A stretch of DNA of 63,107 nucleotides, filler included, from Octopus bimaculoides (taxonomy: Eukaryota), in NCBI RefSeq assembly GCF_001194135.2. It is 5 parts of 5 records of this genome, joined end to end, with 100 filler letters (N's around TTAATTAATTAA, not from the genome) between each part and the next. Parts side by side here need not be neighbours in the genome. Positions count along the whole stretch, not along the records: positions 1 to 29,442 come from NC_068982.1; positions 29,543 to 43,534 come from NW_026327786.1; 3 more parts are not named here. One strand, written 5' to 3'. Shown here piece after piece: positions 16,650-41,128 of the stretch. The notes beneath the pieces were generated by a model, which did not search any database, was not told the DNA's origin, and was given only the letters and a program-made list of their open reading frames with translations. How positions within the stretch are numbered: position 1 is the first letter of the stretch; each line of letters begins with the position of its first letter. A program made the position numbers and the translations under genes.

Positions 16650-16703
16650 TAGAGGTCTGAAGAAGCGGGACAGTTTTTGTCAGCGAAATACCAAGTCTTT
16701 CTA
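16650..16703 (+). ncRNA. Hammerhead-like motif, degenerate
   Basis: CTGAAGA-A-GC(GG)GACA-GTTTT-TGTC(A)GC-GAAA-TACCAAGTC-TTTCTA. Core boxes and stem II are present; stems I and III are imperfect. Followed by (TA)n. Confidence 0.45.
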
Positions 16704-16706
16704 GTT

Positions 16707-16743
<37 letters not shown>

Positions 16744-17910
16744 NNNNNNNNNNNNNNNNNNNNNNNNNNNNNNNNNNNNNNNNNNNNNNNNNNNNNNNNN
16801 NNNNNNNNNNNNNNNNNNNNNNNNNNNNNNNNNNNNNNNNNNNNNNNNNNNNNNNNNNNNNNNNNNNNNNNNNNNNNNNNNNNNNNNNNNNNNNNNNNNN
16901 NNNNNNNNNNNNNNNNNNNNNNNNNNNNNNNNNNNNNNNNNNNNNNNNNNNNNNNNNNNNNNNNNNNNNNNNNNNNNNNNNNNNNNNNNNNNNNNNNNNN
17001 NNNNNNNNNNNNNNNNNNNNNNNNNNNNNNNNNNNNNNNNNNNNNNNNNNNNNNNNNNNNNNNNNNNNNNNNNNNNNNNNNNNNNNNNNNNNNNNNNNNN
17101 NNNNNNNNNNNNNNNNNNNNNNNNNNNNNNNNNNNNNNNNNNNNNNNNNNNNNNNNNNNNNNNNNNNNNNNNNNNNNNNNNNNNNNNNNNNNNNNNNNNN
17201 NNNNNNNNNNNNNNNNNNNNNNNNNNNNNNNNNNNNNNNNNNNNNNNNNNNNNNNNNNNNNNNNNNNNNNNNNNNNNNNNNNNNNNNNNNNNNNNNNNNN
17301 NNNNNNNNNNNNNNNNNNNNNNNNNNNNNNNNNNNNNNNNNNNNNNNNNNNNNNNNNNNNNNNNNNNNNNNNNNNNNNNNNNNNNNNNNNNNNNNNNNNN
17401 NNNNNNNNNNNNNNNNNNNNNNNNNNNNNNNNNNNNNNNNNNNNNNNNNNNNNNNNNNNNNNNNNNNNNNNNNNNNNNNNNNNNNNNNNNNNNNNNNNNN
17501 NNNNNNNNNNNTCACATATATATGTGAAATATATATATGGGAGGGGGGGGGGGCACAAAGGCCATAGAAACCGGGAAACCGGGCCCATGAGCCTGGTTAG
17601 GCTTTAAAATGGCGCATAAATAAAATAATAATATACTCGTGAGAGAAGCAAAATGTGGGAGAATAGATTCTTTACAGGTGCAGACATCACCTTCCAGAAA
17701 TAAACTGCAATAATAACGAATGTAGTCGAGAGAGTAGATGTATGTTAAGGGTAGAGGAGTATTGATTTGTCTCAAAGACGTTTAAAATGTGTGGTTCGCA
17801 TGTTTGTAGAAGTGGTATGTTACATCAAGGGTGAACTGATATAAGAGGGATGGACGGATATTGGCGAAATGAGATTTTTCCAGTGGATTGTGTTGTTGCT
17901 ATTACTGACA

Positions 17911-17947
<37 letters not shown>

Positions 17948-18971
17948 TGTGTGTGTGTGTGTATGTGTGTGTGTGTGTTTGTGTGTTTAACTGTTTGAAG
18001 AAGGTAAGGCAACTACTGTTTAAATATTTATAGTCTAATTAGCAAATCAGGTATTTCGAAAGATTTTACAGCAGAATAAAGATAGTAAGGTGAATGGACA
18101 CACACGCACACACACACACACACACACGCTCACACATATACACACATACATATATATACATACAGACACATGCCCCCCCCCACACACACATGCACACATA
18201 TACACACAAACACACATATACATACATATATATAATACAGACACATGCTCACAAGCACACGCACACACACACACACGCACACACACACACACGCACACAC
18301 ACACACACGCTTACATATATATACATACAGACACATGCCTCCCCNNNNNNNNNNNNNNNNNNNNNNNNNNNNNNNNNNNNNNNNNNNNNNNNNNNNNNNN
18401 NNNNNNNNNNNNNNNNNNNNNNNNNNNNNNNNNNNNNNNNNNNNNNNNNNNNNNNNNNNNNNNNNNNNNNNNNNNNNNNNNNNNNNNNNNNNNNNNNNNN
18501 NNNNNNNNNNNNNNNNNNNNNNNNNNNNNNNNNNNNNNNNNNNNNNNNNNNNNNNNNNNNNNNNNNNNNNNNNNNNNNNNNNNNNNNNNNNNNNNNNNNN
18601 NNNNNNNNNNNNNNNNNNNNNNNNNNNNNNNNNNNNNNNNNNNNNNNNNNNNNNNNNNNNNNNNNNNNNNNNNNNNNNNNNNNNNNNNNNNNNNNNNNNN
18701 NNNNNNNNNNNNNNNNNNNNNNNNNNNNNNNNNNNNNNNNNNNNNNNNNNNNNNNNNNNNNNNNNNNNNNNNNNNNNNNNNNNNNNNNNNNNNNNNNNNN
18801 NNNNNNNNNNNNNNNNNNNNNNNNNNNNNNNNNNNNNNNNNNNNNNNNNNNNNNNNNNNNNNNNNNNNNNNNNNNNNNNNNNNNNNNNNNNNNNNNNNNN
18901 NNNNNNNNNNNNNNNNNNNNNNNNNNNNNNNNNNNNNNNNNNNNNNNNNNNNNNNNNNNNNNNNNNNNNNN

Positions 18972-19272
18972 AGAGTTAGGGTTAGGGTTAGGGTTAGGGT
19001 TAAAGCAAATTTAAAATGAAAAAAGCAAATAAAACGAAGAATCGCTTGTTTATGTAGTCGGCACTTAATGTATATCGGCTGAATGGACGTCAGTGATTGG
19101 TTGAAATTATCGAAATAAGACAATTTTTTACATGAAATAAATTCGAATACAAAAATATTTTTGTGTTCTATAACACAAAATAGATAAGTATACGAAGTTT
19201 GAAAGTCTTTCGGTACCAAAAGCACTACGTAAAACATTAATGAAAAATGTGGCCCCCGTTTTAAAAAAGATC
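18972..19272. mobile_element. GATCC-terminated element with a (TTAGGG)n tract
   Basis: GTTAGGGTTAGGGTTAGGGTTAGGGTTA at the gap edge (18974-19001), then the conserved family body ending TTTTAAAAAAGATCC. Confidence 0.75.
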
Positions 19273-20358
19273 CCATGTGTGTGTGTGTGTAACACAATAC
19301 TCGCTCTGCTCCAACATAAAACAATATTTCCTTAATAATGGTTTATTTGATTTTGATTATCATTATCTTCTTTCTAAGCAACCGCAACATAACTAAAACA
19401 TGTTTGATCATGTTTTGCTGTTTAAGTTGAACTAATGCTATTACGTATTCATTTAATATAAATGTTTTTAACTCGCTTCAGTTTTTCACGTTTCCTTCAT
19501 GAAAAAAAAAAATTATCTTCTTTGGGACAACAATAGTGTGCCATCTCATAAATTGATAGAAAATTAATTAACGATGCTATTAAATTAAGTTTCTATGTGG
19601 GGGAGTGAAAGAAGATATGAATTATGACCGTTTCTGTTTTTTTATTGACGGATTGTATGACTGCATATATAGTTATTAAATAGCCGAGTCAGCGGTGTAC
19701 GAAGTAGGAGTCTAAAGGGATAAATAGAATAGGTCGTTATGGACGCAGGCATGGCTGTATTGTAAAGATTACTTATTAACCTGGTGGTTCAGTCCCACTG
19801 CACGAGACTTCGAGCCTTCTACTATAGCCCCGGGCCGCAATTTTTTTTTTCCCCACCAGAGTTCCGGATCCCAATAATGAATTCATTTGCGTACAGCCAA
19901 TCAGAGCTCACCTTTACCTTGTTGTCAAGTTAACAAACACACTTTACCAAGTAAACTCAGGACGATGAACGGTGTAAGTCGACATATCAAGTTATGCCTG
20001 ATTTTAGGAGACAAGTAATTAGATAGGTTTGCTTCTCTACCTATTATCGGATTTTGTTAGGGCCCCATATGGTAAAGATGTGGATGGGAAAAACTGTGGA
20101 TAGAGGGTGGTGTTCTAGCAACCCTCTCCCCTTACTGTCTTACAAAGTAAACAACAACACAAATAATTACGCAGAGGCAGCCATAGTTGAAACAAGAACA
20201 AGAACAACAAGCATTCTTAAAAGAGAAAAGAAACAAGGTCATTCCTTACCCAAGTGACCTTATCTTATCGCCATCCCATATGCGCGCACGCCGACCGGTG
20301 CCTTAGAAACGAACCTGAAAGACGGAAACTGCATGGAAGTCCGGTGTATATATATATA

Positions 20359-20478
20359 TGTACTAGATATATAGTATTTAGTATAGCGAAGGGTATTCTA
20401 TCCAGAGAAATTAGCGGGAGGACTGAATAATACGATATGAATGCCCCTCACTATACTGAATTGTATATATCTAGTACA
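20359..20478. mobile_element. 120-bp MITE-like element with ~40-bp imperfect terminal inverted repeats
   Basis: Left TGTACTAGATATATAGTATTTAGTATAGCGAAGGGTATTC; right end reverse-complemented TGTACTAGATATATACAATTCAGTATAGTGAGGGGCATTC. Confidence 0.8.
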
Positions 20479-21259
20479 AAGCTCTTACCTGTCTATTTTT
20501 CTCTCACCTGAATGTATTTTTTATTCCTCCTCTCAGTATTTGCACAACTTTGGAACTGCTAGCATTCATTTTCCTTCACTATGGAGTGCTGCATAACCGT
20601 TCTTTCCTTCCTTTCACCATGGTGCACTACCTAAACATCCTTTCTGCTCATGGATTTACCAACAGAATACCCGATCTAACTGGATTTAATTGAACCCATT
20701 CCACCCTCCTGAACATAATGGACCACAATAAATATCATTGATAAAGAACTTTCTCCCACTGTCTAACACATATCTCTCAGATGTCAGAATACCCAAATTA
20801 CAAAGTCTTCGCTAGATACAATGCTCCGATAGCTGGGATATCCCAGAAACAACTGTCAGAGACTATTTTTTACTATTTTTTACCATTCGTTATGTAGTTA
20901 AATTAGACCGAATTGAATTAAATTAAATGTCCTTGTCATATTTTGCCTAATTGTTTGCCTTCCCTCACTATTTTAACCTACACCTACCGACTCAAAGGGA
21001 AGCCACCTTTAGCCGTTGTGAACAAGGCAATCACATAACCACAATTTCAACTGCTGTTCAAACTGGAATTTTGGTGGTGCACCTTTTTAAGCACTCCGGA
21101 CACATACCTTTTAGTTTGAGTCATCCAGACGAAAACACCCCATATCCTTTATATGTATGTATGTATGTATGTATGTAGATTTGTATGTCTTGTTTTATGT
21201 ATGTCTTCTCTTGCATATACTTGCATATCTAGACATTCTCATATATACTTAAATGATAA

Positions 21260-21672
21260 ACTTTTGGAAAGTTTTACAGATTTTTACAGTTCCAGTAATA
21301 ACTTGGATCTGCAGTCTTCGAATCAGCTTTCTCCTTTCTGGTTTTGAGAAGCCTAATTTCTAAAGACTGGTATTCAGGCAATGTGCTACATATTCCAAAG
21401 CCCCAGTAATCACAGACGTAAATCTCAACTTGTACTCTGGATAGAGTAACAGCAGATTTACATGTGACCGCGTGTGTATCGTTTGCGATTTTCTTTCTCC
21501 GTCTTCCCTTCTTTGGACTTTTTCTATATTTCTGATGAAGAGCTCTGCTCGAAACCTGAAATTCTCTTTCCTTTCCTTTCCTTTCCTTTCCTTTCCTAAG
21601 CGTCCAATAACACAGTACTTGTTCCACGTACTCGCGTTGTTGTTTTTTCTTGCTTGTTCTTGTTTAGATTGA
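21260..21672 (+). mobile_element. Penelope-like element terminal region
   Basis: Contains the hammerhead-like motif at 21528, a (TTTCC)n tract, and ends at (TA)n. The family assignment is inference from the hammerhead and architecture. Confidence 0.5.
21528..21562 (+). ncRNA. Minimal type-I hammerhead motif, cleavage triplet mutated
   Basis: ATTT-CTGATGA-A-GAGC-TCT-GCTC-GAAAC-CTG-AAAT. Stem I ATTT/AAAT and stem II GAGC/GCTC; no valid NUH. Confidence 0.6.
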
Positions 21673-22514
21673 ATATATATATANNNNNNNNNNNNNNNNN
21701 NNNNNNNNNNNNNNNNNNNNNNNNNNNNNNNNNNNNNNNNNNNNNNNNNNNNNNNNNNNNNNNNNNNNNNNNNNNNNNNNNNNNNNNNNNNNNNNNNNNN
21801 NNNNNNNNNNNNNNNNNNNNNNNNNNNNNNNNNNNNNNNNNNNNNNNNNNNNNNNNNNNNNNNNNNNNNNNNNNNNNNNNNNNNNNNNNNNNNNNNNNNN
21901 NNNNNNNNNNNNNNNNNNNNNNNNNNNNNNNNNNNNNNNNNNNNNNNNNNNNNNNNNNNNNNNNNNNNNNNNNNNNNNNNNNNNNNNNNNNNNNNNNNNN
22001 NNNNNNNNNNNNNNNNNNNNNNNNNNNNNNNNNNNNNNNNNNNNNNNNNNNNNNNNNNNNNNNNNNNNNNNNNNNNNNNNNNNNNNNNNNNNNNNNNNNN
22101 NNNNNNNNNNNNNNNNNNNNNNNNNNNNNNNNNNNNNNNNNNNNNNNNNNNNNNNNNNNNNNNNNNNNNNNNNNNNNNNNNNNNNNNNNNNNNNNNNNNN
22201 NNNNNNNNNNNNNNNNNNNNNNNNNNNNNNNNNNNNNNNNNNNNNNNNNNNNNNNNNNNNNNNNNNNNNNNNNNNNNNNNNNNNNNNNNNNNNNNNNNNN
22301 NNNNNNNNNNNNNNNNNNNNNNNNNNNNNNNNNNNNNNNNNNNNNNNNNNNNNNNNNNNNNNNNNNNNNNNNNNNNNNNNNNNNNNNNNNNNNNNNNNNN
22401 NNNNNNNNNNNNNNNNNNNNNNNNNNNNNNNNNNNNNNNNNNNNNNNNNACACACACATACACACTTACGTACGTACGTACGTATGTATGTATGTATGTA
22501 TGTATGTATGTATG

Positions 22515-22563
<49 letters not shown>

Positions 22564-22984
22564 GTGTGTTTGTCCCCTACCACTCGAGAGTCAATGTTGG
22601 TTTGTTTACGTCTTCGTAAATTAGCAGTTTGGAAAAATAAATCTATTAAATAAGTATCAAATTTGAAATGAGTGCCGCGGCCATTTTGTTCGATTAACTT
22701 TTCCAAGTTGTACTCCAGAGTATCTACAGTTCAATTGCCGAAACAAGTAAAATATTAAAACAGTAAATTGTAATTTAGTAGACTCTTATTGAATACAGCC
22801 TGGTGTGTATTTGAATACACCCTGATACTTACTTAATCAGGCCTGGAAAAATGAATGCTAGACGGCCTCTAAGAAAGTTTGTTGTTAAATGAAAATATAC
22901 TGAAACATTTCATCCTATACGTAATTGCTTCTCCTACTCTGTTACTTTTCATTCAGTGACAGCTCTCCAGCAAGGTGAAGAGCC

Positions 22985-23190
22985 AGCAAACTCGTTAGCA
23001 CGCCGGGAAAAAATGCTTAGCTGTATTTCGCTCGTCTTTACGTTCTGATTTCAAATTCCGCCAAGGTCAACTTTGCCTTTCAGCCTTTCGGAGGTCGATG
23101 AAATAGGTACCAGTTGAACTTTAGAGTCGATGTAATCGACTAAACTCCTCCTCTTAAACTGCTGGCCTTGTGCCAAAATTTGAAATCAAT
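22985..23190 (+). mobile_element. SINE type C
   Basis: Homology to 15424-15650. Confidence 0.85.
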
Positions 23191-23677
23191 ATGACAGTTC
23201 TCTTTACAGAATCTGGTGCTTGCATGTCAAGACATTGCTTATTTAAAGCGATTAGTTTTAGCTTTTAGACTGACCATCTTTTATATATCGTGTACCGTTA
23301 GTATTACGACATCTATTTTATTTACGTACGCACATCGAGTTACGCTTGATTTCCTTCCACTTATAATCCTACCATTTAAAATAAGCTGATCGTGTGACAA
23401 ACTACATTTCCCTAGCAGCTGAATATTCAACCGAAAGGACGTCTAATCTTATCCCACTGACATCACTCAAACACTTTTCACGTGCAGGGCAGCTCCTACG
23501 TGTAATGGGGATAACTCCGCCTTCTTAAAACAAAATGTAAAATCAGAAAGTATTTCCAAGTGCCGCTCCCCCGTATAAAATTATAGTTACCTCTTCCTAG
23601 ATATAAGGTAAAAGCTGGAAGGAATTTTCTTGTTTGTGTACTTAATTGAGAACAATATTACTCTAACCTTAATTGCT

Positions 23678-24001
23678 GAGACCCCCTTCGGTCATGACTG
23701 ACCATGGGATTGCACCTAGAGGCACAAGTCCGGGCAAGGTTGTTTATGGAAGACCAGCAGTCGCCCATGCATACCAGCCTCCCCTCTCCACGCCACCGGA
23801 GTTATCCAAGGGAAAGGCAAATGGGCCGATACAGCTTGGCACCTGTGATGTCGCAACTCATTTCTACAGCTGAGTGAACTGGAGTAACGTGAAATAAAGT
23901 GTCTTGCTCAAGAATTCAACACGCAGCCCAGTCCGGGATTCGAATTCACAACCTCACAATCGTAAGCTCGACGCTCCAACCACTGAGCCATGCGCCTTCA
24001 C
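23678..24001 (-). mobile_element. tRNA-derived SINE (B-like head + different tail Y)
   Basis: Minus head TGAAGGCGCATGGCTCAGTGG..GAATTCGAATCCCGG and central TTGAGCAAGACACTTTATTTCACG shared with 1163. The tail ..CATGACCGAAGGGGGTCTC is not seen in the other SINEs. Confidence 0.85.
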
Positions 24002-24024
24002 TAATTATTACATGAAATAATCAT

Positions 24025-24305
24025 AAAGCACACGACTTAGCGATTAGGGGTATTCGGCTCACCTTCTTAAAGTCTTGAGTTCGAAACCCGGTGGTGCGTT
24101 GTGTCCTTCAGCAAGACATTTCGCGTTGTTCTAGTCCACTCAGCTGGTAAAAATGAGTAGTATCTGTCACATTGTGTGTCACACTGAATCTCCCTGTGTA
24201 CATTAAGGGTACGCAGGTCTGTGGAATGCACAGCCACTTGCGCGTTAAATTCACGAGCAGGTTACACTGTTGATCGAATCAGCTGGAACACTCGTCGTAG
24301 TAAAT
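24025..24305 (+). mobile_element. SINE head B + tail X, diverged
   Basis: Homology to 1163-1478. Confidence 0.8.
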
Positions 24306-24484
24306 GACAGACAGCCTGGCCGATTATATTTACATTTAGTATTTAATTGAAAATAAAGTTCTCTTTAGTAATGATGCAGTCTTGTTAAAATACTAAATAT
24401 ATGAAAGTGTAAAATTTAATATTCACTTTAATTGACTTTATTTTACTGCAAGAAATGGTTTTTCTTTCGTTTTTATACAAAGAT

Positions 24485-24694
24485 AGGCGCAGGGGTGGCT
24501 GTGTGGTAAGTAACTTGCTTACCAACCACATGGTTTCGGGTTCAGTCCCACTGCGTGGCACCTTGGACAAGTGTCTTCTACTATAGCCTCGGACCGACCA
24601 AAGCCTTGTGTGTGGATTTGGTCGATGGAAACTGAAAGAAGCCCGTCGTATNNNNNNNNNNNNNNNNNNNNNNNNNNNNNNNNNNNNNNNNNNN

Positions 24695-24740
<46 letters not shown>

Positions 24741-24935
24741 TGTGTTTGTCCCCCAACATCGTTTGACAACCGATGCTGGTGTGTTTACGTCCCCGTAACT
24801 TAGCGGTTCGGCAAAAAGAGACCGATAGAATAAGTACTGGGCTTACAAAGAATAAGTCCTAAGGTCGATTTGCTCGACTACAAAGGCGGTGCTCCAGCAT
24901 GGCCGCAGTCAAATGACTGAAACAAGTAAAAGCAT
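24485..24935 (+). mobile_element. Full-length SINE type D
   Basis: Head AGGCGCAGGGGTGGCTGTGTGGTAAG, internal (TG)n and conserved 3' tail. Confidence 0.92.
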
Positions 24936-25151
24936 AAAAGAAAAGAATACACTCAATTCAGTCCTTTCCGAGTTGTTTAAGCAACTTGTCTTGTCACTGA
25001 AGGATCAATGGTGTCGTATGATAGTGGGAGCGTATCAAAGAGATTGTCATGCCAGACATAATCGAAGGCCGTGAAACTTGCATGTGTGATGACATTACAA
25101 AGGCGTGACAGAACACTAGTCTGTGACATGGAAAAACTTATCTCCAGTACA

Positions 25152-25206
<55 letters not shown>

Positions 25207-26099
25207 TACTAGTGATCTCTGGGAGAGACACAAAGTGTTAGAAAAGCTGATTGTGAACGAATGTTCCTATCATTTTTGATGTATTGTAAATGAGAGCGAT
25301 AGGTCGATAGTTAGTGAATTTAATCTTGCTGCTCTTGGGAATGGGACGTACCGTCAGAAAATAGCGTGTTTCTAAAGATCAGGATGGATCCCTAAAGAAA
25401 GTGAAAGAATTCAGTGAGGATAGAGGATAGCTCATGGGTGCACTATTTGAGCATAATGGAAAATATAGGTTATGTCATGCTGTCGATTTCTAGAAAGAAC
25501 GGAATAGATAAACTGGTAGACACTTGGATGTGAGACAACCCTATAAATCCAGGTGGTGTTTACTTGGGATTTTAAATAAGGATCTATATCTTCATGGAAG
25601 TACCGACTAACATCCATATTCCCTGGAAAAAGATGAGTTGTGAGCATTATTCTCACGCCTGTATTCTACCTTTACTCACCACTAACTAGAAAATTTCAAA
25701 ACTTCGTAGTAAGTTAACAGAAAAAACAAAGAAATACGTGAATTCTATGCAGCTTTTTTCCTTATAATTTCTTAGCCACCGGAGATATTTTCGTACTCGG
25801 GAAGTATATGTCTACGATGGAGTGAAGAAAGAAAATTATGGAAGAGTCTTGTTGAATGTGTGAATTGTGGAGCTAGAAGAAAAGCAATAAGGTGGGAAAC
25901 TTCGCATGTGTACCGCATACGCAACCATCTTGGCAGGAAGACTTTGCGAAGTTGAAAGGGACACTCTAGAAAAAGGTAGTCCGACAGGATTTGTGGACTT
26001 GAGTAGATTTTCTTCTTCTTCTTCTTCTTCTTCTTCTTCTATATACATATATACGACGGGCTACTTACCACACAGCCACTCCTGCGATTATTTATATAT

Positions 26100-26720
26100 A
26101 TAATTTTTAAAATGTGTAGTAAATAAACGAACATATACTAAATACACAGGCAAACAGAAATCGCAGAAGGTTACCAACTCTTCATCAGTTATCGGCCAGA
26201 GGGGTCAAACGCAATTTCAGCCCTTATCGATAGTATTGATTCCACTCTGGAGACACCGACAAGAAACTTGCCGGAGACGGTACCAAAAACAGAACAAAAC
26301 GAGGCGGGCTCGAGACAAGACCGTTAGCGGAGGGACGAGGGACAAAATAAACAGAATAAAGGCTTAGAACCATACGAAGACAACGATTAATAATGATGAT
26401 ACATATACAAAACAAAAAAAAATGGTGTGTTTAACCTCGTGTCGCGGACAAAATTACAAATGTTCTTGCCGCGGAGAATGGTCGGAGAATGGTCATAGAC
26501 ACTAGCTGCAGTATCCACCCCATCACGCAGGCCTCATTTCTCGGACGGACCGCATTTATCCGGGAACAACTGATGAAGGGAATGTTCATTTTGTTGCATG
26601 TCTCGTTTCTCTGTTTTGTTTTTTATCGTTGTTCAAAAAAGGTTCGTTTTCTATGTTATTGTCTTTCATGTTCTCGTTTCCCATTCTGTCCACGTTTTTT
26701 GATGCCCTGTACCCATATAT
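26100..26720. mobile_element. Possible Penelope-like terminal sequences in inverted arrangement
   Basis: AACTGATGAAGAG on the minus strand (~26178-26192) and AACTGATGAAGGG on the plus strand (~26568-26580). The latter resembles the minus-strand motif at ~28676-28692. Confidence 0.3.
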
Positions 26721-26777
26721 GCATGCATATATACATAAATATGTCTGTACATATATGTATGTATACATGCATATATT

Positions 26778-26821
<44 letters not shown>

Positions 26822-28789: not shown

Positions 28790-29300
28790 AATCTTCCACT
28801 GAGGAGGGAGCCGGTTTTCAACAAAGATACGAGGCTCCATCATTTGGATGTAGTTAACACAAACAAATTCACATTTGGAACTTGAGAAAAGTCTTGCATA
28901 TTTTTACTGTTCCACTCACAGATTTCACTTGTAATGTACGAATTTGTCGGTCGATTTCTCTTTCTGAAAATCACAGTTTATCCAATTTCTCCTTTAATAA
29001 TTTACTAACAAAACCTAGTGCTCCAATTATTATTGGTATGAATATGAATTCATTGTCTGGATATAGAAGCTGGAGGTTTCGAAGCAGTTGTCCATAGATA
29101 TCCTCTTTTTCTTTGATTTTCAACGAGATATTTGTATATTCAGGGCAGCTAACCTCTATGATGGTACATACCTTTGCCCCTCTGTCCCAAACAACAATGT
29201 CTGGCGTATTATGCTTACATTTGACAGAAGTTTTGATGGGAATATTCCATCAGAATTCCTTGAGCTGGTGTTTATGAATGAATTCCGTAAAAGAGGGCTT
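28790..29300 (-). pseudogene. 3' end of an RLE-type non-LTR retrotransposon (R4/NeSL/HERO-like)
   Basis: Minus frame: WNIPIKTSVKCKHNTPDIVVWDRGAKVCTIIEVSCPEYTNISLKIKEKEDIYGQLLRNLQLLYPDNEFIFIPIIIGALG..LQVKSVSGTVKICKTFLKFQM*. PD..E.K nuclease motif; internal stops; stop codon at 28869. Confidence 0.85.
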
Positions 29301-30193: not shown

Positions 30194-30237
<44 letters not shown>

Positions 30238-30553
30238 GTGTATTCATATAATAGAGATCATGAACACATTAATTCGCTGAGAGGAGCTCCATTCTCCATA
30301 AACATTCAAATGTATTCGTTTTTCCTGGTAGATATAATATTATAGCGTGGCAGAAAAACTGCAGATAACACTAATTGTTCCGTGGCGAAAATGGTTTATG
30401 TAAATCATATACACAAACATACAATTACTGACAGACACGCAAACATACACACACATATATACATACACTCGGAAGACGTTAATCTATTTATTGTAAATAT
30501 GAAGCGCTTATCAACCTATTATACGCAAACGTGTCAACATATATGTATGTATA

Positions 30554-30617
<64 letters not shown>

Positions 30618-30979
30618 TATATACATATACATATATACATATATATATACACACATATATATATATATAGATACGTACATATATATACATATATACAAGT
30701 GTATATATTTATACACACACACACACATATGTATATATACTCACACACAGTATACGCATGTACGTATGTATGTGTATATGTATGTGTGTGTATGTATGTA
30801 TGTGAATATCGTATATACATATACATATATGTGTGTGTGCGCGTTTCTGTGTGTGTGTGTGTGTGTGTGTAAATCTCAATACTTGTATATGTGTTAGATA
30901 GATGCATATTTATGAAGTTGTCCATACATATATGCTCATATTTACAGACACACACACTAGTGTGTGTATAAATAAATAA

Positions 30980-31060
<81 letters not shown>

Positions 31061-31300
31061 TCTACATTTATGCATATTCATGCATGCATCTATGCATATA
31101 GTTACATGTATACGCAACCATATGCTTATGGCCATATATATGTTTACGTACATACATGAATACATATTTATGCTCATATACGCATATCCTTACGTATATA
31201 CCCTTACACATTTAGATGCATAGCTATACATACATGGAAATATATTTCAAATACATATACATACATTTTTCTGATCCCGCTTCCATATATACATGTATAT
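29946..31300. repeat. Compound (TA)n/(TG)n/(TACA)n microsatellite field
   Basis: Direct. Confidence 0.95.
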
Positions 31301-31308
31301 ATATATCG

Positions 31309-31617
31309 TGGTACTCCGTCGATTACGACGAGGAGGGTCCTAGCTGATATGACTAACGGAACAGCTTGCTCCTGTAATTAACGTGCAAGTGGCTGAGTAC
31401 TCCACAGACATACGTACCCTTAACGTAGTTCTCAGGGAGAATGTGACAAGGCTGGCCCTTTAGAATTACAGGTACAATCCATTTTTGCCAGCTGAGTGGA
31501 CTGGAGAAACATGGAAGTAAAGTGTCTTGCTCAAGGACACAATGGGTAGAGGGGAATTGAACTCAGGACATTACGATCGGGAGCCGAATACCCTAACCAC
31601 TCGTCCACGCACCTTCA
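31309..31617 (-). mobile_element. SINE head B + tail X
   Basis: Homology to 1163-1478. Confidence 0.85.
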
Positions 31618-31652
31618 CTACACATACATACATGCATACATACATACATATA

Positions 31653-31687
<35 letters not shown>

Positions 31688-31937
31688 TTTATTTTGCTTG
31701 AAAGAGTTCCAACACTGTCTGTTTTTTATGTTTTATTTATATTCCTGCAGAACTAATGTGGGGTATAGAATATGGAATATACAATATATAATATGATATA
31801 CAATATACAATATAAAATAAAATAAAATAAAAATGGATGGCACCATGAAAGAAAGTATTGAATGTAGATGAAATATTGAGTGTTCAATATAAAGGATCAA
31901 ATATATAAATATATAAATATAAATATATATATATAAA

Positions 31938-31977
31938 GGCGACTCGAGTTTCAGGGCTATTTCCCTTCGTCATGGCC
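31938..31977 (-). ncRNA. Minimal type-I hammerhead motif with a 1-nt core lesion
   Basis: Minus: GGC-C(A)TGACGA-AGGG-AAATAG-CCCT-GAAA-CTCGAG-TC-GCC. Palindromic stem III ACTCGAGT and GUC site. Flanked by TA-rich runs on both sides. Confidence 0.7.
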
Positions 31978-32331
31978 GGTATATATATATATATANNNNN
32001 NNNNNNNNNNNNNNNNNNNNNNNNNNNNNNNNNNNNNNNNNNNNNNNNNNNNNNNNNNNNNNNNNNNNNNNNNNNNNNNNNNNNNNNNNNNNNNNNNNNN
32101 NNNNNNNNNNNNNNNNNNNNNNNNNNNNNNNNNNNNNNNNNNNNNNNNNNNNNNNNNNNNNNNNNNNNNNNNNNNNNNNNNNNNNNNNNNNNNNNNNNNN
32201 NNNNNNNNNNNNNNNNNNNNNNNNNNNNNNNNNNNNNNNNNNNNNNNNNNNNNNNNNNNNNNNNNNNTTTTTTTTTTTTTTTTTTTTTTTTCAGCTTTAT
32301 ATTACATTAATCTTAATCTTAATCTTATTTC

Positions 32332-32376
32332 GGCCAGAGTTCTTTCGTCACACTTCTGTGACCTCATCAGTGGTCC
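32332..32376 (-). ncRNA. Near-intact minimal type-I hammerhead ribozyme
   Basis: Minus: GGACCA-CTGATGA-G-GTCACA-GAAG-TGTGAC-GAAA-GAAC-TC-TGGCC. Intact core boxes, 6-bp stem II, stem I CCA/TGG and CUC site. Stem III AGAACTCT is one change from the palindrome AGAGCTCT. Confidence 0.8.
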
Positions 32377-32864
32377 TTTGTTTCCTTATATATATATATA
32401 TGTATATAGCACCACCTGATGGGATTATCTAAATCCTTTTTAAGTCAAGTTTCAGTTATGGCCCATTCAAGTGGTGAGTTTTTCTTGAGTGAGTTGTATC
32501 CAGGTATGGGTTGCTTGTCTGGTATTCCTTGAAGAAATCTGCAATTTATGACCGAAACAATATATATAGGTGCAGGTGTGGCTATGTGGTAAGAAGATTG
32601 CTTCCCAACCACATGGTTTCGGGTTCAGTCCCACTGCGTGGCACCTTGAATGTCCTCTATATGCTCACGCTACACACAGACACACACACACACACGCACA
32701 GACACACACACATATATAATAAGAAGAGGGATATGATATCTATGCAGATATGGAATTTCTCTTAGTAAAATGTCAAGGTTGGTTCCTTCTGCGGTTTTTG
32801 GTAATGTACGTTCCCCTCGCATCCGATGTTCCAGTTTATTTCTGGGCTACTTAGAATGTAAGGT

Positions 32865-32987
32865 ACAACATTGTTTTCTACACTTGGCACAAGGCCCGAA
32901 ATTTTTGAGGAGGGAGCCAGTCGATTAGATCGTCCCCAGTACGCAACTGGTACTGAATTTATCGACCCCGAAAGGATGAAAGGCAAA
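32865..32987 (-). mobile_element. SINE type C, 3' part (rest in gap)
   Basis: ATCGACCCCGAAAGGATGAAAGGCAAA. Confidence 0.85.
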
Positions 32988-33591
32988 NNNNNNNNNNNNN
33001 NNNNNNNNNNNNNNNNNNNNNNNNNNNNNNNNNNNNNNNNNNNNNNNNNNNNNNNNNNNNNNNNNNNNNNNNNNNNNNNNNNNNNNNNNNNNNNNNNNNN
33101 NNNNNNNNNNNNNNNNNNNNNNNNNNNNNNNNNNNNNNNNNNNNNNNNNNNNNNNNNNNNNNNNNNNNNNNNNNNNNNNNNNNNNNNNNNNNNNNNNNNN
33201 NNNNNNNNNNNNNNNNNNNNNNNNNNNNNNNNNNNNNNNNNNNNNNNNNNNNNNNNNNNNNNNNNNNNNNNNNNNNNNNNNNNNNNNNNNNNNNNNNNNN
33301 NNNNNNNNNNNNNNNNNNNNNNNNNNNNNNNNNNNNNNNNNNNNNNNNNNNNNNNNNNNNNNNNNNNNNNNNNNNNNNNNNNNNNNNNNNNNNNNNNNNN
33401 NNNNNNNNNNNNNNNNNNNNNNNNNNNNNNNNNNNNNNNNNNNNNNNNNNNNNNNNNNNNNNNNNNNNNNNNNNNNNNNNNNNNNNNNNNNNNNNNNNNN
33501 NNNNNNNNNNNNNNNNNNNNNNNNNNNNNNNNNNNNNNNNNNNNNNNNNNNNNNNNNNNNNNNNNNNNNNNNNNNNNNNNNNNNNNNNNNN

Positions 33592-33646
<55 letters not shown>

Positions 33647-34052
33647 GTATATATGTGTGTATATATTTACATGTGTACGTGTCTGTGTCTATGTTTATCT
33701 CTCACCACTGCTTGACTACTTGTACTGGTCTGTTTCCGTTCCTGTTGTCTAGCAGTTCGGCAAAAATAACCGATAGAATGGGTATCAGGTTTGAAGACGT
33801 GTACTGTGGTCACTCCATTCGACTGGAAATTGCTGCAAGGTTGTGCCCCAGGATGCCTGCAATTTAATGACCGAAACAAGTAAAAGATAAAAGACACATA
33901 TATGTGTATATATATTTAGTGTAAACAGAATTAGCGGTTATAATAACCAACTAAGGGATAAAATATCCGTATATACTATCAGTATCCGCTACCTGTATTA
34001 TTCTCGGACTTTGGTGTGCAGGAACACTATGCACGCAGTATATATATATAAA

Positions 34053-34089
<37 letters not shown>

Positions 34090-34404
34090 ATAAATAATCG
34101 AATAAATATTTAGATGATCTTTTCCTTAGCAAACGAAAAGAACAAATATCGCGCAAAATTGTTTCGTAACTCAGAAACACGTAAATATCTTATCTAAATA
34201 TTTCTCCATCCTTTATGACTTTAAGCATTCCTTATCTTTTCACTCTTGCATATTGCTAGATATTCCATACGGTTCATACAACGACACATTAGGGAGTTTT
34301 TTTAATGAGTACAACCGGATTATTTGCATCCATACATTGTTACTTAAATATATATATACATATACATACATACTTACATATATATATACATATACATACA
34401 TACT

Positions 34405-34753
34405 GCATAGTGCCAAAGATCCCAGCAATGCCATCGCGCTTCAGGACCAGTAACTGCAACAGCTTGGGATTCAGGGGCCCACAGCTTTTTAATATTCTCC
34501 CAAAGAGCCTGAGGAATCTGCACGAAGTAGATGTAGGAGTTTTTAAATCAAAACTGGACCTCTTCCTATCGAAAGTCCCAGATGAACCTACCTCGCGGCA
34601 GGAGGTGCAAATGAGGGTTGCTAAACCAAACTCCATTCTTCACCAAGTGCCACATATTGTAAGAGGCTCCCTGTAATAACAGCGTAGCAACACGGTGGTG
34701 CATCAGCATGACCGCAGCTGAGCTGAAACTTAAAAAAAAAAAATAATAAATAN
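34405..34753 (+). pseudogene. 3' end of a CR1/L2-group LINE (ORF2 C-terminus, 3' UTR and A-rich tail)
   Basis: RFRTSNCNSLGFRGPQLFNILPKSLRNLHEVDVGVFKSKLDLFLSKVPDEP..*, then a short 3' UTR ending CTGAAACTTAAAAAAAAAAAATAATAAATA. Confidence 0.85.
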
Positions 34754-35077
34754 NNNNNNNNNNNNNNNNNNNNNNNNNNNNNNNNNNNNNNNNNNNNNNN
34801 NNNNNNNNNNNNNNNNNNNNNNNNNNNNNNNNNNNNNNNNNNNNNNNNNNNNNNNNNNNNNNNNNNNNNNNNNNNNNNNNNNNNNNNNNNNNNNNNNNNN
34901 NNNNNNNNNNNNNNNNNNNNNNNNNNNNNNNNNNNNNNNNNNNNNNNNNNNNNNNNNNNNNNNNNNNNNNNNNNNNNNNNNNNNNNNNNNNNNNNNNNNN
35001 NNNNNNNNNNNNNNNNNNNNNNNNNNNNNNNNNNNNNNNNNNNNNNNNNNNNNNNNNNNNNNNNNNNNNNNNATTTT

Positions 35078-35468
35078 TGTTGTTGTTGTTGGCACTCCGT
35101 CGCTTTTGACGTCGAGGGTTCCAGTTGATCCGATCAACGGAACAGCCTGCTCGTGAAATTAACATGCAAGTGGTTGAGCACTCCACAGACACGTGTACCC
35201 TTAACGTAGTTCTCGGAGATTTTCAGCGTGACACACAGTGTGGCAAGGCTGACCCTTTGAATTACAGGCACACCAGAAACAGGAAGTAAGAGTGTGAGAA
35301 AGTTGTGGTGGAAGAGTACAGCAGGGTTCGCCACCATCCCCTGCCGGAGCCTCGTGGAGCTTTAGGTGTTTTCGCTCAATAAACACTCACAACACCCGGT
35401 CTGGGAATCGAAACTGCGATCCTATGATCGCGAGTTCGCTGCCCTCACCACTGGGCCATTGCACCTTC
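35078..35468 (-). mobile_element. Full-length SINE head A + tail X
   Basis: Highly similar to 8119-8492; (CAA)n tail. Confidence 0.93.
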
Positions 35469-35513
35469 GCCTTAGCGAAATACATGCATAAATACATACA
35501 TACATATATACAT

Positions 35514-35958
35514 ACGAGGGAGAGTCAGAAACTATACACATTCCTGTTTTCTCAATGTATTTACACAAAAGCAGGGGATAAAAAAGTACGCCATTTTTCT
35601 ATGTAGTCTCCTTCCTTTTCGATTCACTTGGTCCAGCGGTCCACAAGTTTGCTTATTCCCTCCAAGAAGAAAGTTTTCGATTGGTCGTGCTACTATTTAT
35701 GCGCCGCTACCTTCACATCGTCATCCATAGAAAATGGTCTAATTATACCAAATCATTAATCATACCAGAAGTTTTAATCACTGACTCTGGGGGAGGTATA
35801 ACATTCGACTATAGTCTTTTGTAAAATTATACGCACCCTAGTTTTTTCAATGTATTTACACAAAAGCAGGGGATAAGCAAGTACTTCTTTTTTCTGTATA
35901 GTCTCCTTTATTTTCGATGCACTTGATCCAGCGGGCCACAAGCTTGCTTATTCTCTCC
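35514..35958 (-). mobile_element. Mariner 3' end with the C-terminal segment duplicated
   Basis: Terminus TACGAGGGAGAGTCAGAAA. Minus frame ..KTFFLEGISKLVDRWTK*IEKEGDYIEK. Segment 35545-35660 is repeated at ~35840-35958. Confidence 0.75.
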
Positions 35959-35981
35959 ATATATATATATATATCAGCTGT

Positions 35982-36026
35982 CGAACGCCGACGAAGGGAA
36001 ATAACCCTGAAATCCGGATACGTTCG
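35982..36026 (+). ncRNA. Minimal type-I hammerhead motif (U4>C)
   Basis: CGAACG-CCGACGA-AGGG-AAATAA-CCCT-GAAA-TCCGGA-TA-CGTTCG. Perfect 6-bp stem I, 4-bp stem II, palindromic stem III ATCCGGAT and AUA site. Preceded by (TA)n. Confidence 0.8.
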
Positions 36027-36174
36027 TGCTGCTGATCGAGGTGAGAGGGATAACTTCCCTTGGCAAACAGGACACAGTCGTGTGTCGATAAGCCAGCTGG
36101 AGGAGATATCTTGTTCAATGGAATTAGTCTGGAAGATTATTGTTGCAATTGGTTTTAGTTAGGAACTCGTAACC

Positions 36175-36709
36175 TTGAAGAACATAGCATAAATACATCT
36201 ATAGATAGAGAACTCGGCTACAAATGGCAAGGATTTGTTGGGTACGCAGTTGAAGTGAAAAGTAAAGTGGAGTTGAAGTGAAAGGTAAAGGAAAGACTTT
36301 TTAAGAAGCAGGGTTCTTGAAATCGGTGAGGTATAGAAAAACTCCGCCGAAGAACTTGGCATAAATATAAATATAAATGAAAATTTTTTTACATACACGA
36401 TAGGAGTTTGTTTGGTGGGTTATACCAAAGAATGAAAGGAAAAAAAAAATAATGACATTTGTATGGAAGGTTGTTGTGGCGATCGGAAATAAGAAGAGTC
36501 ATGCAATGTTGAAGAATTTTGTTTAGTTATAAATATAAATGAAGAATTTTTTTTTATAAATATGACAGGGGTTTGTTGGGTGGGGTAGACCAATGGAGTA
36601 GAGGCGAAAAGAAAAGAAAAGAAAAGAAAAGAGAAGATCATTGATCACTTCTTATGAAAGAATTTTTTATGAACGATCACTTTTTATGAAGCAGAGTTCT
36701 TGCAATCCA

Positions 36710-36710
<1 letters not shown>
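36175..36710. repeat. Degenerate ~175-bp tandem units
   Basis: GAAGAA..ATAAAT..GG.TTTGTT(T)GG motif recurs near 36180, 36350 and 36520. Confidence 0.5.
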
Positions 36711-36741
<31 letters not shown>

Positions 36742-37561
36742 NNNNNNNNNNNNNNNNNNNNNNNNNNNNNNNNNNNNNNNNNNNNNNNNNNNNNNNNNNN
36801 NNNNNNNNNNNNNNNNNNNNNNNNNNNNNNNNNNNNNNNNNNNNNNNNNNNNNNNNNNNNNNNNNNNNNNNNNNNNNNNNNNNNNNNNNNNNNNNNNNNN
36901 NNNNNNNNNNNNNNNNNNNNNNNNNNNNNNNNNNNNNNNNNNNNNNNNNNNNNNNNNNNNNNNNNNNNNNNNNNNNNNNNNNNNNNNNNNNNNNNNNNNN
37001 NNNNNNNNNNNNNNNNNNNNNNNNNNNNNNNNNNNNNNNNNNNNNNNNNNNNNNNNNNNNNNNNNNNNNNNNNNNNNNNNNNNNNNNNNNNNNNNNNNNN
37101 NNNNNNNNNNNNNNNNNNNNNNNNNNNNNNNNNNNNNNNNNNNNNNNNNNNNNNNNNNNNNNNNNNNNNNNNNNNNNNNNNNNNNNNNNNNNNNNNNNNN
37201 NNNNNNNNNNNNNNNNNNNNNNNNNNNNNNNNNNNNNNNNNNNNNNNNNNNNNNNNNNNNNNNNNNNNNNNNNNNNNNNNNNNNNNNNNNNNNNNNNNNN
37301 NNNNNNNNNNNNNNNNNNNNNNNNNNNNNNNNNNNNNNNNNNNNNNNNNNNNNNNNNNNACATATACAAACGTACATATATATATACACATATATACATA
37401 CACACTTATACATATACATACATATGTACACATATACATACATATATACACATATACATACATATATACACATATACATACATATATACACATATACATA
37501 CACACATGTATATCTATGTGTATACATATATATCTACTTATACATATAGACACTATATACG

Positions 37562-37608
<47 letters not shown>

Positions 37609-37941
37609 TATATACGCATACATATATATATATATATTGAATGATTCTCAACTGACCGTTATTTCTATATGGAAGATATTGGAAGTAAGATGTTAGCATT
37701 TCGTGGTATTATAACTGACATAGAGAAAAGTATTTTGTTTTTTTTTGTTTGTTTGTGGGGAGGTTAATCACATACCCGATATCAAGAAGAAATATCTTCA
37801 TGATGATATATCAAATTTCTGACATAAAAGAAAGATATATTCTGGAAGAGGTGAGGCACCGTTGCCTGACAGACTTTCGTTTAACGACTTAACTACGTTT
37901 ACCATTTTCGATACCAACCCGCCCAAAATCACTCATGGCCC

Positions 37942-38327
37942 TTGTTGTTGTTGGCACTTCCGTCGCTTACGACGTCGAGGGTTCCAGTTGATCCGATCAA
38001 CGGAACAGCCTGCTCGTGAAACCAACGTGCAAGTGGCTGAGCACTCCACAGACACGTGTACCCTTAATGTAGTTCTCGGGGATATTCAGCGTGACACAGT
38101 GTGACAAGGCTGACCCTTTGAATTACAGGCACAACAGAAACAGGAAGTAAGAGTGAGAGAAAGTTGTGGTGAAAGAGTACAGCAGGGTCCACCATTCCCT
38201 GCCGGAGCCTCGTGGAGCTTTAGATGTTTTCGCTCAATAAACACTCACAACGCCCGGTCTGGGAATCGAAACCGCGATCCTATGACCGCGAGTCCGCTGC
38301 CCTAACCACTGGGCCATTGCGCTTCCA
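37942..38327 (-). mobile_element. Full-length SINE head A + tail X
   Basis: Highly similar to 8119-8492. Confidence 0.95.
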
Positions 38328-38672
38328 CATTTGGAACATTAACTAACATGAAATTTTGATGGAAGGTTTAAATTTAGATCGTTTGAACTTTTTTTCTTAC
38401 CATATTCCAATTGAAACACATTGCTTTGTTTTAATTAGTTTTGAAAATAAGGAATTTAGTAAAACAAGTTTGTCATTAACTTGGTGTTTGGAACATAAAT
38501 TTATAAGATACTCTGATGGAAGGTTTAAATTTTAATTACTTTAACCCTGCTTTTTTTAACCACTGAAAATAGTTAAGAATTTACTGAAAGAATTTTGTCA
38601 TTATTAAGTTATTTGGAAATTTTGATAGAAATATGTTTTCAATTTAGATCGCTTTGCACGATACTTCCATCA

Positions 38673-39321
38673 TAGAGCGCAATGGCCCAGTAGTTAGGGC
38701 AGCGGACTCGCGGTCATAGGATCGCGGTTTCGATTCCCAGACAAGGCGTTGTGAGTGTTTATTGAGCGAAAACACCTAAAAGTTCCACGAGGCTCCGGCA
38801 GGGGATGGTGGCGAACCCTGCTATACTCTTTCACCACAACTTTCTCTCACTCTTACTTCCTGTTTCTGTTGTGCCTGCAATTCAAAGGGTCAGCCTTGTC
38901 ACACTCTCTGTCACGCTGAATATTCCCCGAGAACTATGTTAAGGGTACACGTGTCTGTGGAGTGCTCAGCCACTTGCATAGGATCGCGGTTTCGATTCCC
39001 AGACCGGGCGTTGTGAGTGTTCATTGAGTGAAAACACTTAAAGCTCCACGAGGCTCCGGCAGGGGATGGTGGCGAACCCTGCTGTACTCTTTCACCACAA
39101 CTTTCTCTCACTCTTACTTCCTGTTTCTGTTGTACCTGTAATTCAAAGGGTCAGCCTTGTCACATTCTGTGTCACGCTGAATATCCCCGAGACCTACGTT
39201 AAGGTGTACACGTGTTTGTGGAGTACTCAGCCACTTGCACGTTAATTTCACGAGCAGGCTGTTCCGTTGATCGGATCAACTGGAACCCTCGACGTCGTAA
39301 GCGACGGAGTGCCAACAACAA
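38673..39321 (+). mobile_element. SINE head A + tail X as a partial dimer (38673-38978, then restart 38979-39321)
   Basis: The sequence breaks at AGCCACTTGCA and restarts at TAGGATCGCGGTTTCG of the head. Confidence 0.92.
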
Positions 39322-39658
39322 TGTTCCAATTAACTATATTCTTAATTATTTTCAAAATAACTGAAACGAAGACATCTTTCATTTGAAATATGGTAACAAA
39401 AGGGTTAACGTGATCAAAATAAAAAATGATCCATCAAAGCTTTATTCTATTTTATGTTTCAAACACTAGATTAATAATGACGAAGTTATTTTACTAAATT
39501 CTTAAAGATTTTAAAAATTAATTAAAACCGACATTGTATTTCAATAGAAATACAGTTTAAAAAATGGTTAAAGCGATCTAAATTAAAACTTTCCGTCAAA
39601 ACATCTTATAAGTAATAACGCCAAAATCATTTTACGAAATTCTTCGTTATGCTTTTAT

Positions 39659-40060
39659 CTTTTTACTTCTTTCAGTCATTTGACTGTGGCCATGCTGGAG
39701 CACCGTCTTTAATCGAACAAATCGACCCCAGGACTTATTCTTTGTAAGCTTAGTGCTTATTCTATCGGTTTCTTTTGCCGAACCACTATGTTACAGGGAC
39801 GTAAACACACCAACATCGGTTGTTAAGCGATGGTGGGGGACAAACGCAGACACACACATTCACACACACACACACACTCGCACACACATATATATACGAC
39901 GGGCTTCTTTGAGTTTCCGTCTACCAAATCCACTCACAAAGCTTTGGTCGGCCCGTGGCTATAGTAGAAGGCACTAACCCAAGGTGCCTCGCACTGGGAC
40001 TGAACCCGGAACCATGTGGTTGGTAAGCAAGCTACTTACCACACAGCCACTCCTACGCCT
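39659..40060 (-). mobile_element. Full-length SINE type D
   Basis: Reverse-complement homology to 24485-24935. Confidence 0.92.
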
Positions 40061-40332
40061 TTAGCTAAAACAAAGGCGGAGTTTTTCAACAGAAATATGG
40101 TAACGAAAGACTTAAAGTGATCTTAATTAAAATCTTCCATCAATATTTCATGTTAATTAATGATCCAAACACTAGCTTAACAATGATTAAGTTTGTTCAT
40201 GGACTGAATTCTTCCTTATTTTCGAAATTATTTGAAATGAAGGCAGCGTGTTTTAGCAGAAATACGGTAACAAAAGAGATAAAGAGATCTAAATGAAAAC
40301 CTCTCATCAAAACATTTTATAAATAATCCTGT

Positions 40333-40622
40333 AGGCGCAGGAGTGGCTGTGTGGTAAGTAGCTTGCTTACCAACCACATGGTTCCGGGTTCAGTCCAACT
40401 GCGTGGCACATTGGGCAAGTGTCTTCTACTACAGTCTCGGGCTGACCAAAGCCTTGTGAGTGGATTTGGTAGATGGAAACTGAAAGAAGCACGTCGTATA
40501 TATGTATATATATATATATATATGTGTGTGTATATGTTTGTGTGTCTGTGTTTGTCCCTCCCCCCAACATCGCTTGACAACCGATGCTGGTGTGTTTACG
40601 TCCTCGTAACCTAGCTGTTCGG
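40333..40622 (+). mobile_element. SINE type D (3' end in gap)
   Basis: Head AGGCGCAGGAGTGGCTGTGTGGTAAG. Confidence 0.92.
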
Positions 40623-40771
40623 NNNNNNNNNNNNNNNNNNNNNNNNNNNNNNNNNNNNNNNNNNNNNNNNNNNNNNNNNNNNNNNNNNNNNNNNNNNNNN
40701 NNNNNNNNNNNNNNNNNNNNNNNNNNNNNNNNNNNNNNNNNNNNNNNNNNNNNNNNNNNNNNNNNNNNNNN

Positions 40772-40905
40772 NCTTAATTTATCGACCTCGAAAGGATAAA
40801 AACCAAAGTCGACCCCGGTGGAAATTGAATTCAGAATGTTGCGTCTGGCGAAATACCGTTAAGTATTTCGTCTAGTACTCTAACAATTCTGCCTGCTCAT
40901 CGCCT
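40772..40905 (-). mobile_element. SINE type C, 5' part, diverged
   Basis: ATCGACCTCGAAAGGATAAAAACCAAAGTCGACCCCGG. Confidence 0.75.
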
Positions 40906-41071
40906 TACGTTTTATAAATAACAATTACAAAATTACGGAGATGTACTTGCATAGCAAGTGACCTGATCTGAGATCGTTTGCTGGAACGAAAACAATTGCA
41001 GCGTGGAAGGTGTTTATAAGCCATTTAAAATAACACACAAAAACCGTTAGATTCACTTCAACATTTAAATT

Positions 41072-41128
41072 TAATTTGTCAAAATATTTTCGTCGCTTTG
41101 AGACCGCGACCTGTTCACTGAAAAAATT
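41072..41128 (-). ncRNA. Minimal type-I hammerhead motif with a compensatory G3:C8 core
   Basis: Minus: TTTTTCA-GTGAACA-G-GTCGC-GGTCTCAAA-GCGAC-GAAA-ATAT-TT-TGACAAA. Stem II is 5 bp, stem III is palindromic (AAATATTT), stem I pairs at 6 of 7 positions. Confidence 0.65.

Follow-up and report, generated by a model that had tools for sequence, protein, structure and literature searches.

Metazoan non-LTR (long terminal repeat) retrozymes are described as repeats with a unit of 150-450 bp (mussel 350-390, axolotl 330 and 350) that reach thousands to 10^5 copies and carry a canonical type-I hammerhead ribozyme (Cervera & de la Pena 2020, PMC7229834), and they are reported to derive from the terminal repeats of Penelope-like elements (bioRxiv 10.64898/2026.07.22.740005). 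Such repeats are further characterized as non-coding, devoid of LTR, PBS and PPT, arranged head to tail in tandem, and a source of plentiful unit-length RNA in both linear and circular form. Penelope-like elements themselves carry minimal hammerheads, with an unpaired base before helix II and a palindromic or short helix III, and usually occur as solo copies (Cervera & De la Pena 2014, PMC4209133). A preference for (TA)n among hammerhead-bearing Penelope-like elements is also published, an octopus family included (Craig et al. 2021, PMC8557442): in the Hydra clade, the hammerhead lies near the 3' end and has a long, near-palindromic helix III, (TA)n preference is given in 26 of the 27 Hydra rows of File S1 and U at position 11.1 in 17 of the 25 families of File S2 (both counted by eye), features that recur here. 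We analyzed a stretch of Octopus bimaculoides DNA of 63,107 bases (hereafter the window; 33 gaps with 10,395 N, dense in microsatellites), in which an initial annotation had named six hammerhead-like motifs: m1 at 16650(+), m2 at 21528(+), m3 at 31938(-), m4 at 32332(-), m5 at 35982(+) and m6 at 41072(-). The element kind, hammerheads at Penelope ends, TA preference and animal retrozymes are known; the core variant of m5, C in place of U at core position 4 (U4C), is new to the literature searched as the consensus of a high-copy animal family.

The m5 hammerhead consists of a helix I of 6 bp with a distal helix, a helix II of 4 bp and a helix III of 2 bp closed by a palindromic tetraloop (Table 1). 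This is the type-I geometry of non-LTR retrozymes (helix I of about 6 bp, helix II of 4 bp and a short helix III with a palindromic loop), and since it fits the definition given in PMC4209133, we assign m5 to the canonical metazoan form. The description of all six motifs as minimal is therefore incorrect for m5 and also for m3, which shares the 4-bp helix II and the 2-bp helix III with palindromic tetraloop; both are unlike the hammerheads of PMC4209133 in this respect, and no adjoining open reading frame (ORF) was found in the window. We propose that m5 lies in a 135-nt fragment of a repeat with very high copy number, likely a 345-nt non-LTR retrozyme, with C4 throughout the family, a monomer predicted to be locked and a dimer predicted to form a double hammerhead, a reading that we hold to be, on balance, probable. 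The canonical hammerhead and the unit of about 350 nt are shared with the retrozymes of PMC7229834, and the amphibian members have a weak palindromic helix III that needs a dimer, as predicted here for m5. Family-wide C4 and an A-U pair at 10.1-11.1 set m5 apart from them. The main text of that paper names no cephalopod or octopus, and the tandem arrays and circles of its retrozymes are at most a prediction for m5.

The deviating core letter belongs to the family. Public read and contig sets were aligned to 35520-36715 and then to 35964-36125, and differences present at 6% or more among copies at least 80% alike were tabulated over 35973-36107 (14 rows, all listed). C4 has no row in any of the four runs, at a depth of 2.1 million in run X1 and about 170 reads in run X23, while rows flank it on both sides (35984 and 35992). 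All fixed positions of the catalytic core CUGANGA...GAAA...NUH are kept in the family except U4, which is C. We conclude that C-C-G-A is the consensus core among copies at least 80% alike, which rules out CCGA as decay of a single copy; the initial annotation missed this most unusual point, that the seemingly imperfect m5 core is the family consensus. The same C is present in organism B, the contig of which departs from the window at 36033 only; organism C, with one difference that has no assigned position, probably has it too. Either organism is one or two letters away from the window and may represent close kin or a labelling error. The alignment may have clipped U4 subfamilies of greater divergence, as the 11 reads described next and m3 indicate. 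At 35990, 11 RNA reads of run X21 match the ribozyme from G5 on and have another 5' arm that ends in C-U. This suggests that there is also a related subfamily with U, as is usual, at position 4; m3 points the same way.

Folding of m5 gave a z-score of -4.53, with none of 200 shuffles equally stable. In the predicted monomer, the core letters C3-C4-G5 pair with the loop of helix III (36015-36017; pair probabilities 0.99, 0.99 and 0.86), and this locked shape is computed to lie 7.8 kcal/mol below the active one. The monomer energy is -23.7 kcal/mol with C4 and -21.5 kcal/mol with U4, so that the lock is 2.2 kcal/mol weaker with U4. Two copies reach -52.3 kcal/mol, compared to -47.4 kcal/mol for two monomers, and cofold as a double hammerhead in which the 8-nt palindromes pair to a helix III of 8 bp and both cores are free. 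The models thereby predict that U4C locks single copies off, while pairs would still cut. A dimer geometry through a palindromic helix III had been proposed by the initial annotation; this stands for m3, m5 and m6, which cofold as double hammerheads, but not for m1, m2 and m4. A further motif absent from that annotation, m7, takes the double-hammerhead shape only in part.

Summed contig depth over m5 amounts to 2.7 and 2.4 million in two DNA contig sets, compared to 47.7 and 48.3 in the unique flank, and drops sharply at 36107. The raw depth ratio between m5 and the unique flank is about 5x10^4 in two DNA runs; summed depth is inflated by overlapping short contigs and is not a copy number, and we read the copy number as of the order of 10^4. 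Other copies extend with shared sequence both before 35973 (34 contigs, 86 reads; organism B included) and behind 36107 (36 contigs, 209 reads). One 375-nt contig of organism C leads from 36107 back to 35973 via 210 letters, with 30 letters of overlap between its two ends. The resulting period of 345 nt falls in the 150-450 bp range of non-LTR retrozymes; this closure is a single contig from a run only guessed to be RNA, in which circle, multimer and DNA are indistinguishable. A head-to-tail unit of 345 nt is likely, and only 135 of these 345 nt lie in the window. For m5, the proposal of a ribozyme-bearing repeat family is thus borne out by very high copy number, the 345-nt unit and variation at tolerated positions. 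Elsewhere in the window, the downstream part of the family has only chance-level similarity, and scans with the m5 and m3 motif patterns yielded no match in metagenome contigs, viral contigs and prokaryote genomes. We rejected m5 as the 5' ribozyme of an RTE or R4 long interspersed element (LINE), as those carry HDV-like (hepatitis delta virus) ribozymes and the m5 unit closes at 345 nt. The m5 piece starts and ends with the same 6-nt palindrome, CAGCTG (35975-35980 and 36102-36107).

Four of the six motifs lie within 11 nt of (TA)5+, compared to 4.3% of 50-nt stretches drawn at random from that span that come within 20 nt of such a tract, which confirms the reported TA adjacency. That TA forms part of the element can be rejected for m5: depth on the tract (35964-35969) is 35 in run X1 and zero in three other runs, compared to about 2 million on the element, and the (TA)n is therefore the junction of this copy and lies outside the family. 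By analogy, the TA link is best explained by target selection through a Penelope-like nuclease that is borrowed. The TA junctions, together with the Hydra-like U11.1 shared by m5 and m3, would also suit a Penelope-like element (Hydra or Neptune type), either autonomous or internally deleted, with m5 as its terminal repeat; a short partial tandem of its end would then give the 345-nt period, and all motifs would be Penelope-like ends. The Penelope-like reverse transcriptase (RT) remnant in the window agrees with this, and an inverted junction at 35975 in 17 RNA reads (a genomic inversion or a library template switch) recalls the inverted copies of Penelope-like insertions. The m5 hammerhead is, however, not of the minimal form, having a distal helix on helix I and a 4-bp helix II, and behind it follow about 70 nt of shared sequence and more, leading back to the start after 345 nt. 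Nor does an RT or GIY-YIG remnant adjoin m5 or any other motif in the window (profile panel of one clade only), which also leaves the suggested linkage of the motifs to RT and GIY-YIG ORFs without a case here. We consider a Penelope-like end somewhat unlikely for m5.

If m5 is instead a retrozyme, as we favor, the following cycle can be envisaged. A monomer with its core C3-C4-G5 paired to the helix III loop would be locked, and two copies would pair their 8-nt palindromes and free both cores. Multimeric transcripts would then be cleaved after 36020, at a lowered rate, into single units, and these would be circularised by a host ligase to a 345-nt circle, following the model of PMC7229834 and bioRxiv 10.64898/2026.07.22.740005. 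Copies would be inserted by the RT and GIY-YIG nuclease of a TA-preferring Penelope-like element, and such a borrowed enzyme would account for the truncated, (TA)n-joined copies (m3 and m5). One may go further and suppose that an active retrozyme family, of the order of 10^4 copies, fixed C4 because core-palindrome pairing locks the monomer circle against re-cleavage and multimers unlock by dimer pairing; we put this forward tentatively, as an unlikely but specific proposal.

The variation within the family bears on whether it is active. Inside 35982-36026, five places vary, none of them among the 11 fixed core positions. N7 varies at 20% (X1), H17 changes from A to C at 20% (X1) and 38% (X23), an A to G change in helix I that gives G-U reaches 31%, and the two sides of the 15.2-16.2 pair change at 10% and 4%. 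The chance of finding both free positions (N7 and H17) among five variable places of 45 is 0.010. These free-position and helix-compatible changes argue against the family being a dead or nearly dead satellite or SINE-like (short interspersed element) repeat with a founder U4C, its copies multiplied by amplification of DNA or through borrowed retrotransposition machinery, without self-cleavage. Further, a viroid variant is known in which U4C has low in vitro activity that nevertheless suffices in vivo, and this variant stays infectious (Perreault et al. 2011 and work cited there, PMC3088659). On the other hand, a dead repeat is what the harmful effect of U4C in vitro and the inactive fold predicted for the monomer would lead one to expect, and the RNA reads described below, with neither ends at the cut site nor strand bias, agree with it. 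We regard this explanation as quite unlikely.

Several of these and other observations weigh against an active, locked retrozyme. The lock also forms with U4 (pair probabilities 0.79, 0.78 and 0.67), and U4C lowers activity considerably in vitro (PMC3088659). Taken alone, the finding of no variable place among 11 core positions lacks significance, as 14 of 135 places vary, and the two helix III changes in the 15.2-16.2 pair are unphased and differ in frequency. Only one of 10 CpG sites has a transition row; the family may be young or little methylated, and the fixed C4 may therefore be a founder state. The window contains no tandem array of head-to-tail copies, the single-contig closure of the unit and the lack of RT/GIY-YIG remnants beside the motifs count here as well, and eight of nine frog dimers tested elsewhere did not cleave (bioRxiv 10.64898/2026.07.22.740005). 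Three raw RNA read sets of organism A (12.9, 12.0 and 11.5 million reads, about 6% of each run) gave 542, 557 and 360 aligned reads, the first two counts including the flanking repeat. The two strands were covered to a similar extent, read ends did not accumulate at 36020, and no back-joint occurred in these sets, a pattern that fits passive transcription inside other RNAs. Reads of 150 nt are too short to bridge the gap of 210 nt, and libraries of this kind may lose circles; m5 circles are neither shown nor excluded by the RNA reads. A search of public runs for the stretch listed no RNA run, which carries no weight in either direction.

Reading the sequence directly, we found all six motifs at the places and in the order given by the initial annotation, but they are not of equal standing: m3, m4, m5 and m6 pass full descriptors well above chance, whereas m1 and m2 keep the core boxes but match none of a set of six full descriptors. 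A descriptor with a Watson-Crick 3-8 pair (further Y4, G5, A6, A9, helix II of at least 4 bp, a 15.2-16.2 pair, NUH and helix I of at least 3 bp) matched m4, m5 and m6, compared to a mean of 0.010 matches in 300 local dinucleotide shuffles, none of which reached three; it was composed after the matches were known, and the other descriptors were tuned likewise. A control with a non-paired 3-8 gave no match (0.033 in shuffles), a descriptor tolerating one core change or insertion matched m3, m4 and m5 (mean 0.10; 0 of 60 shuffles), and the exact core matched m4 only. The bare core-box pattern, which m1 and m2 pass, occurs four times, compared to 2.15 per shuffled window, and these two are therefore not above chance alone. 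Weak two-mismatch matches at 8663, 39385, 39417 and 39605 fail the paired-3-8 descriptor and were discarded as chance. That the motifs as a whole are chance matches in repeat-rich DNA might be argued from m1 and m2, from the tuning of the descriptors and from Rfam, which at E values up to 10 has no hammerhead for m3, m4 or m5 and none among the 150 of 261 matches listed for the window; given the shuffles, the empty control and the m5 family data, which already refute it for m5, we judge it most improbable.

The relatedness of m3 to m5 is close, with 22 of 23 letters in common from G5 to A15.1. The m3 core has one inserted base, a helix III pair is C-G for U-A, H17 is C, and m3 carries the double change of the 15.2-16.2 pair that is seen varying in the m5 family. 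We rejected a tandem dimer of m3 and m4: their sequences differ, and poly(A) and a gap lie between them. Behind m4 follow a short AT-rich tail and then poly(A), and m4 is likely a truncated Penelope-like 3' end. The m6 core departs from the consensus at positions 3 and 8 only, and its G-C pair is a compensatory swap of the C3-G8 tertiary pair. It has all three traits of the minimal form (unpaired base before helix II, G10.1-C11.1, palindromic helix III), whereas m4 is without the palindrome and m7 has G-U at 10.1-11.1, because of which m7 drops from the paired-3-8 descriptor. In the unpaired base and in their palindromic or short helix III, m4, m6 and m7 resemble the hammerheads of PMC4209133; the U3-A8 swap of m7 occurs there in Schistosoma Cercyon elements and is known among natural core variants (PMC3088659), while no G3-C8 was found among the variants of PMC4209133. 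The m1 motif is possibly a decayed Penelope-like 3' end, and m2 may be a decayed or chance motif. Judged by sequence, m4, m6, m7 and perhaps m1 and m2 likely represent the 3' ends of Penelope-like elements, as solo copies, and the motifs overall are likely remnants of hammerhead-bearing retroelements, most of them ordinary Penelope-type remnants. Several distinct families may be represented, going by sequence difference between motifs.

Table 1. Features of the window discussed in the text (core letters with their position; distance to the nearest (TA)n in nt)
Feature	Position	Strand	Core letters	Distance to (TA)n	Description
Mariner transposase fragment	10150-10455	+			PF01359 (Pfam, E 2.9e-19)
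m1	16650-16703	+	CTGAAGA, 16657	6	Core boxes; helices II and III broken; upstream of (TA)n
m2	21528-21563	+	CTGATGA, 21532	110	Core boxes, 4-bp helix II, helix I; no valid helix III or NUH
m3	31938-31980	-	C[A]TGACGA, 31974 (one-base insertion)	0	Hammerhead-only insert of ~45 nt between two TA tracts; relative of m5
m4	32330-32376	-	CTGATGA, 32370	11	Intact core; 6-bp helix II after unpaired base; non-palindromic helix III
(TA)n tract	35959-35974	+			5' junction of this m5 copy; two letters common with element end
m5 repeat piece	35973-36107	+			135 nt of very high-copy repeat; candidate non-LTR retrozyme, unit likely 345 nt; short at both ends here
m5	35974-36036	+	CCGACGA, 35988	1	Canonical-geometry type-I hammerhead, C at core position 4 (35989); from sequence, fold, variant table and cofold
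m5 helix I	35982-35987/36021-36026	+			Plus distal helix
m5 helix II	35995-35998/36005-36008	+			
m5 helix III palindrome	36012-36019	+			Predicted cut after 36020
m6	41072-41128	-	GTGAACA, 41118	549	Minimal-type hammerhead; G3-C8 swap, G10.1-C11.1, 5-bp helix II, palindromic helix III
RT remnant	45319-45918	-			Decayed, Penelope-like; profile of 109 RT/GIY-YIG relatives, best E 3.8e-11
m7	56989-57028	+	56993	65	Not in initial annotation; minimal-type hammerhead, U3-A8 swap, palindromic helix III; upstream of (TA)n

The RT remnant lies 4.2 kb upstream of m6 on the same strand, with nothing between them in the one-clade profile panel, and it indicates that Penelope-like elements were present in this genome. 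A word search with a 60-aa RT piece retrieved none of 29 candidates; a HMMER search gave seven matches, five RT-like and two unrelated. Among the 393 ORFs of the window, Pfam recognized no RT or GIY-YIG domain, and only the mariner transposase piece passed the cut-off. Three ORF pieces without a Pfam match, at 28974-29249(-), 60967-61263(+) and 8519-9388(+), resemble what we take to be R4/NeSL/CRE-type restriction-like endonuclease ends. Around m5, about 1.5 copies of a 295-bp piece at some hundreds of times unique depth occupy 35514-35959, the second of which is interrupted by the TA tract and m5; the piece starts like what is presumably a mariner terminal repeat. Between the m5 piece and the next TA tract lies near-unique sequence (36108-36711) with internal partial repeats of 160-170 bp. 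Several SINE-like families of 85-94% identity were also observed (8115-8492, 35080-35466, 37942-38328 and 38676-39325; 24480-24946, 39654-40063 and 40314-40622), one of them with a 261-bp internal tandem duplication at 38715-39239.

In PMC8557442, all 25 listed Hydra hammerheads have U4, in contrast to C4 in m5; the Hydra-1_Obim motif differs by eye from all seven motifs of the window, and a short motif search of the supplement gave no family match. U4C is a rare variant in PMC3088659, whereas in m5 it is the consensus of a high-copy animal repeat. The literature searched contained no high-copy animal family with a consensus C4 and no natural genomic G3-C8, with Repbase, subscription papers, Lunse et al. 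2017 and the supplement of PMC7229834 outside its scope; these sources may already list the family. A CYGANGA descriptor is in use (PMC13481778).

How metazoan retrozyme circles keep their ribozyme from cutting is a question left open in PMC7229834, to which the m5 family would offer a candidate answer of three base pairs. Because three core variants (C4, G3-C8 and U3-A8) occur in one 63-kb window and Rfam is blind to m3, m4 and m5, our data suggest that standard searches undercount hammerheads in such genomes. If the tentative proposal of a locked monomer circle in an active C4 family is true, large ribozyme families would be missed by CUGANGA descriptors and by Rfam.

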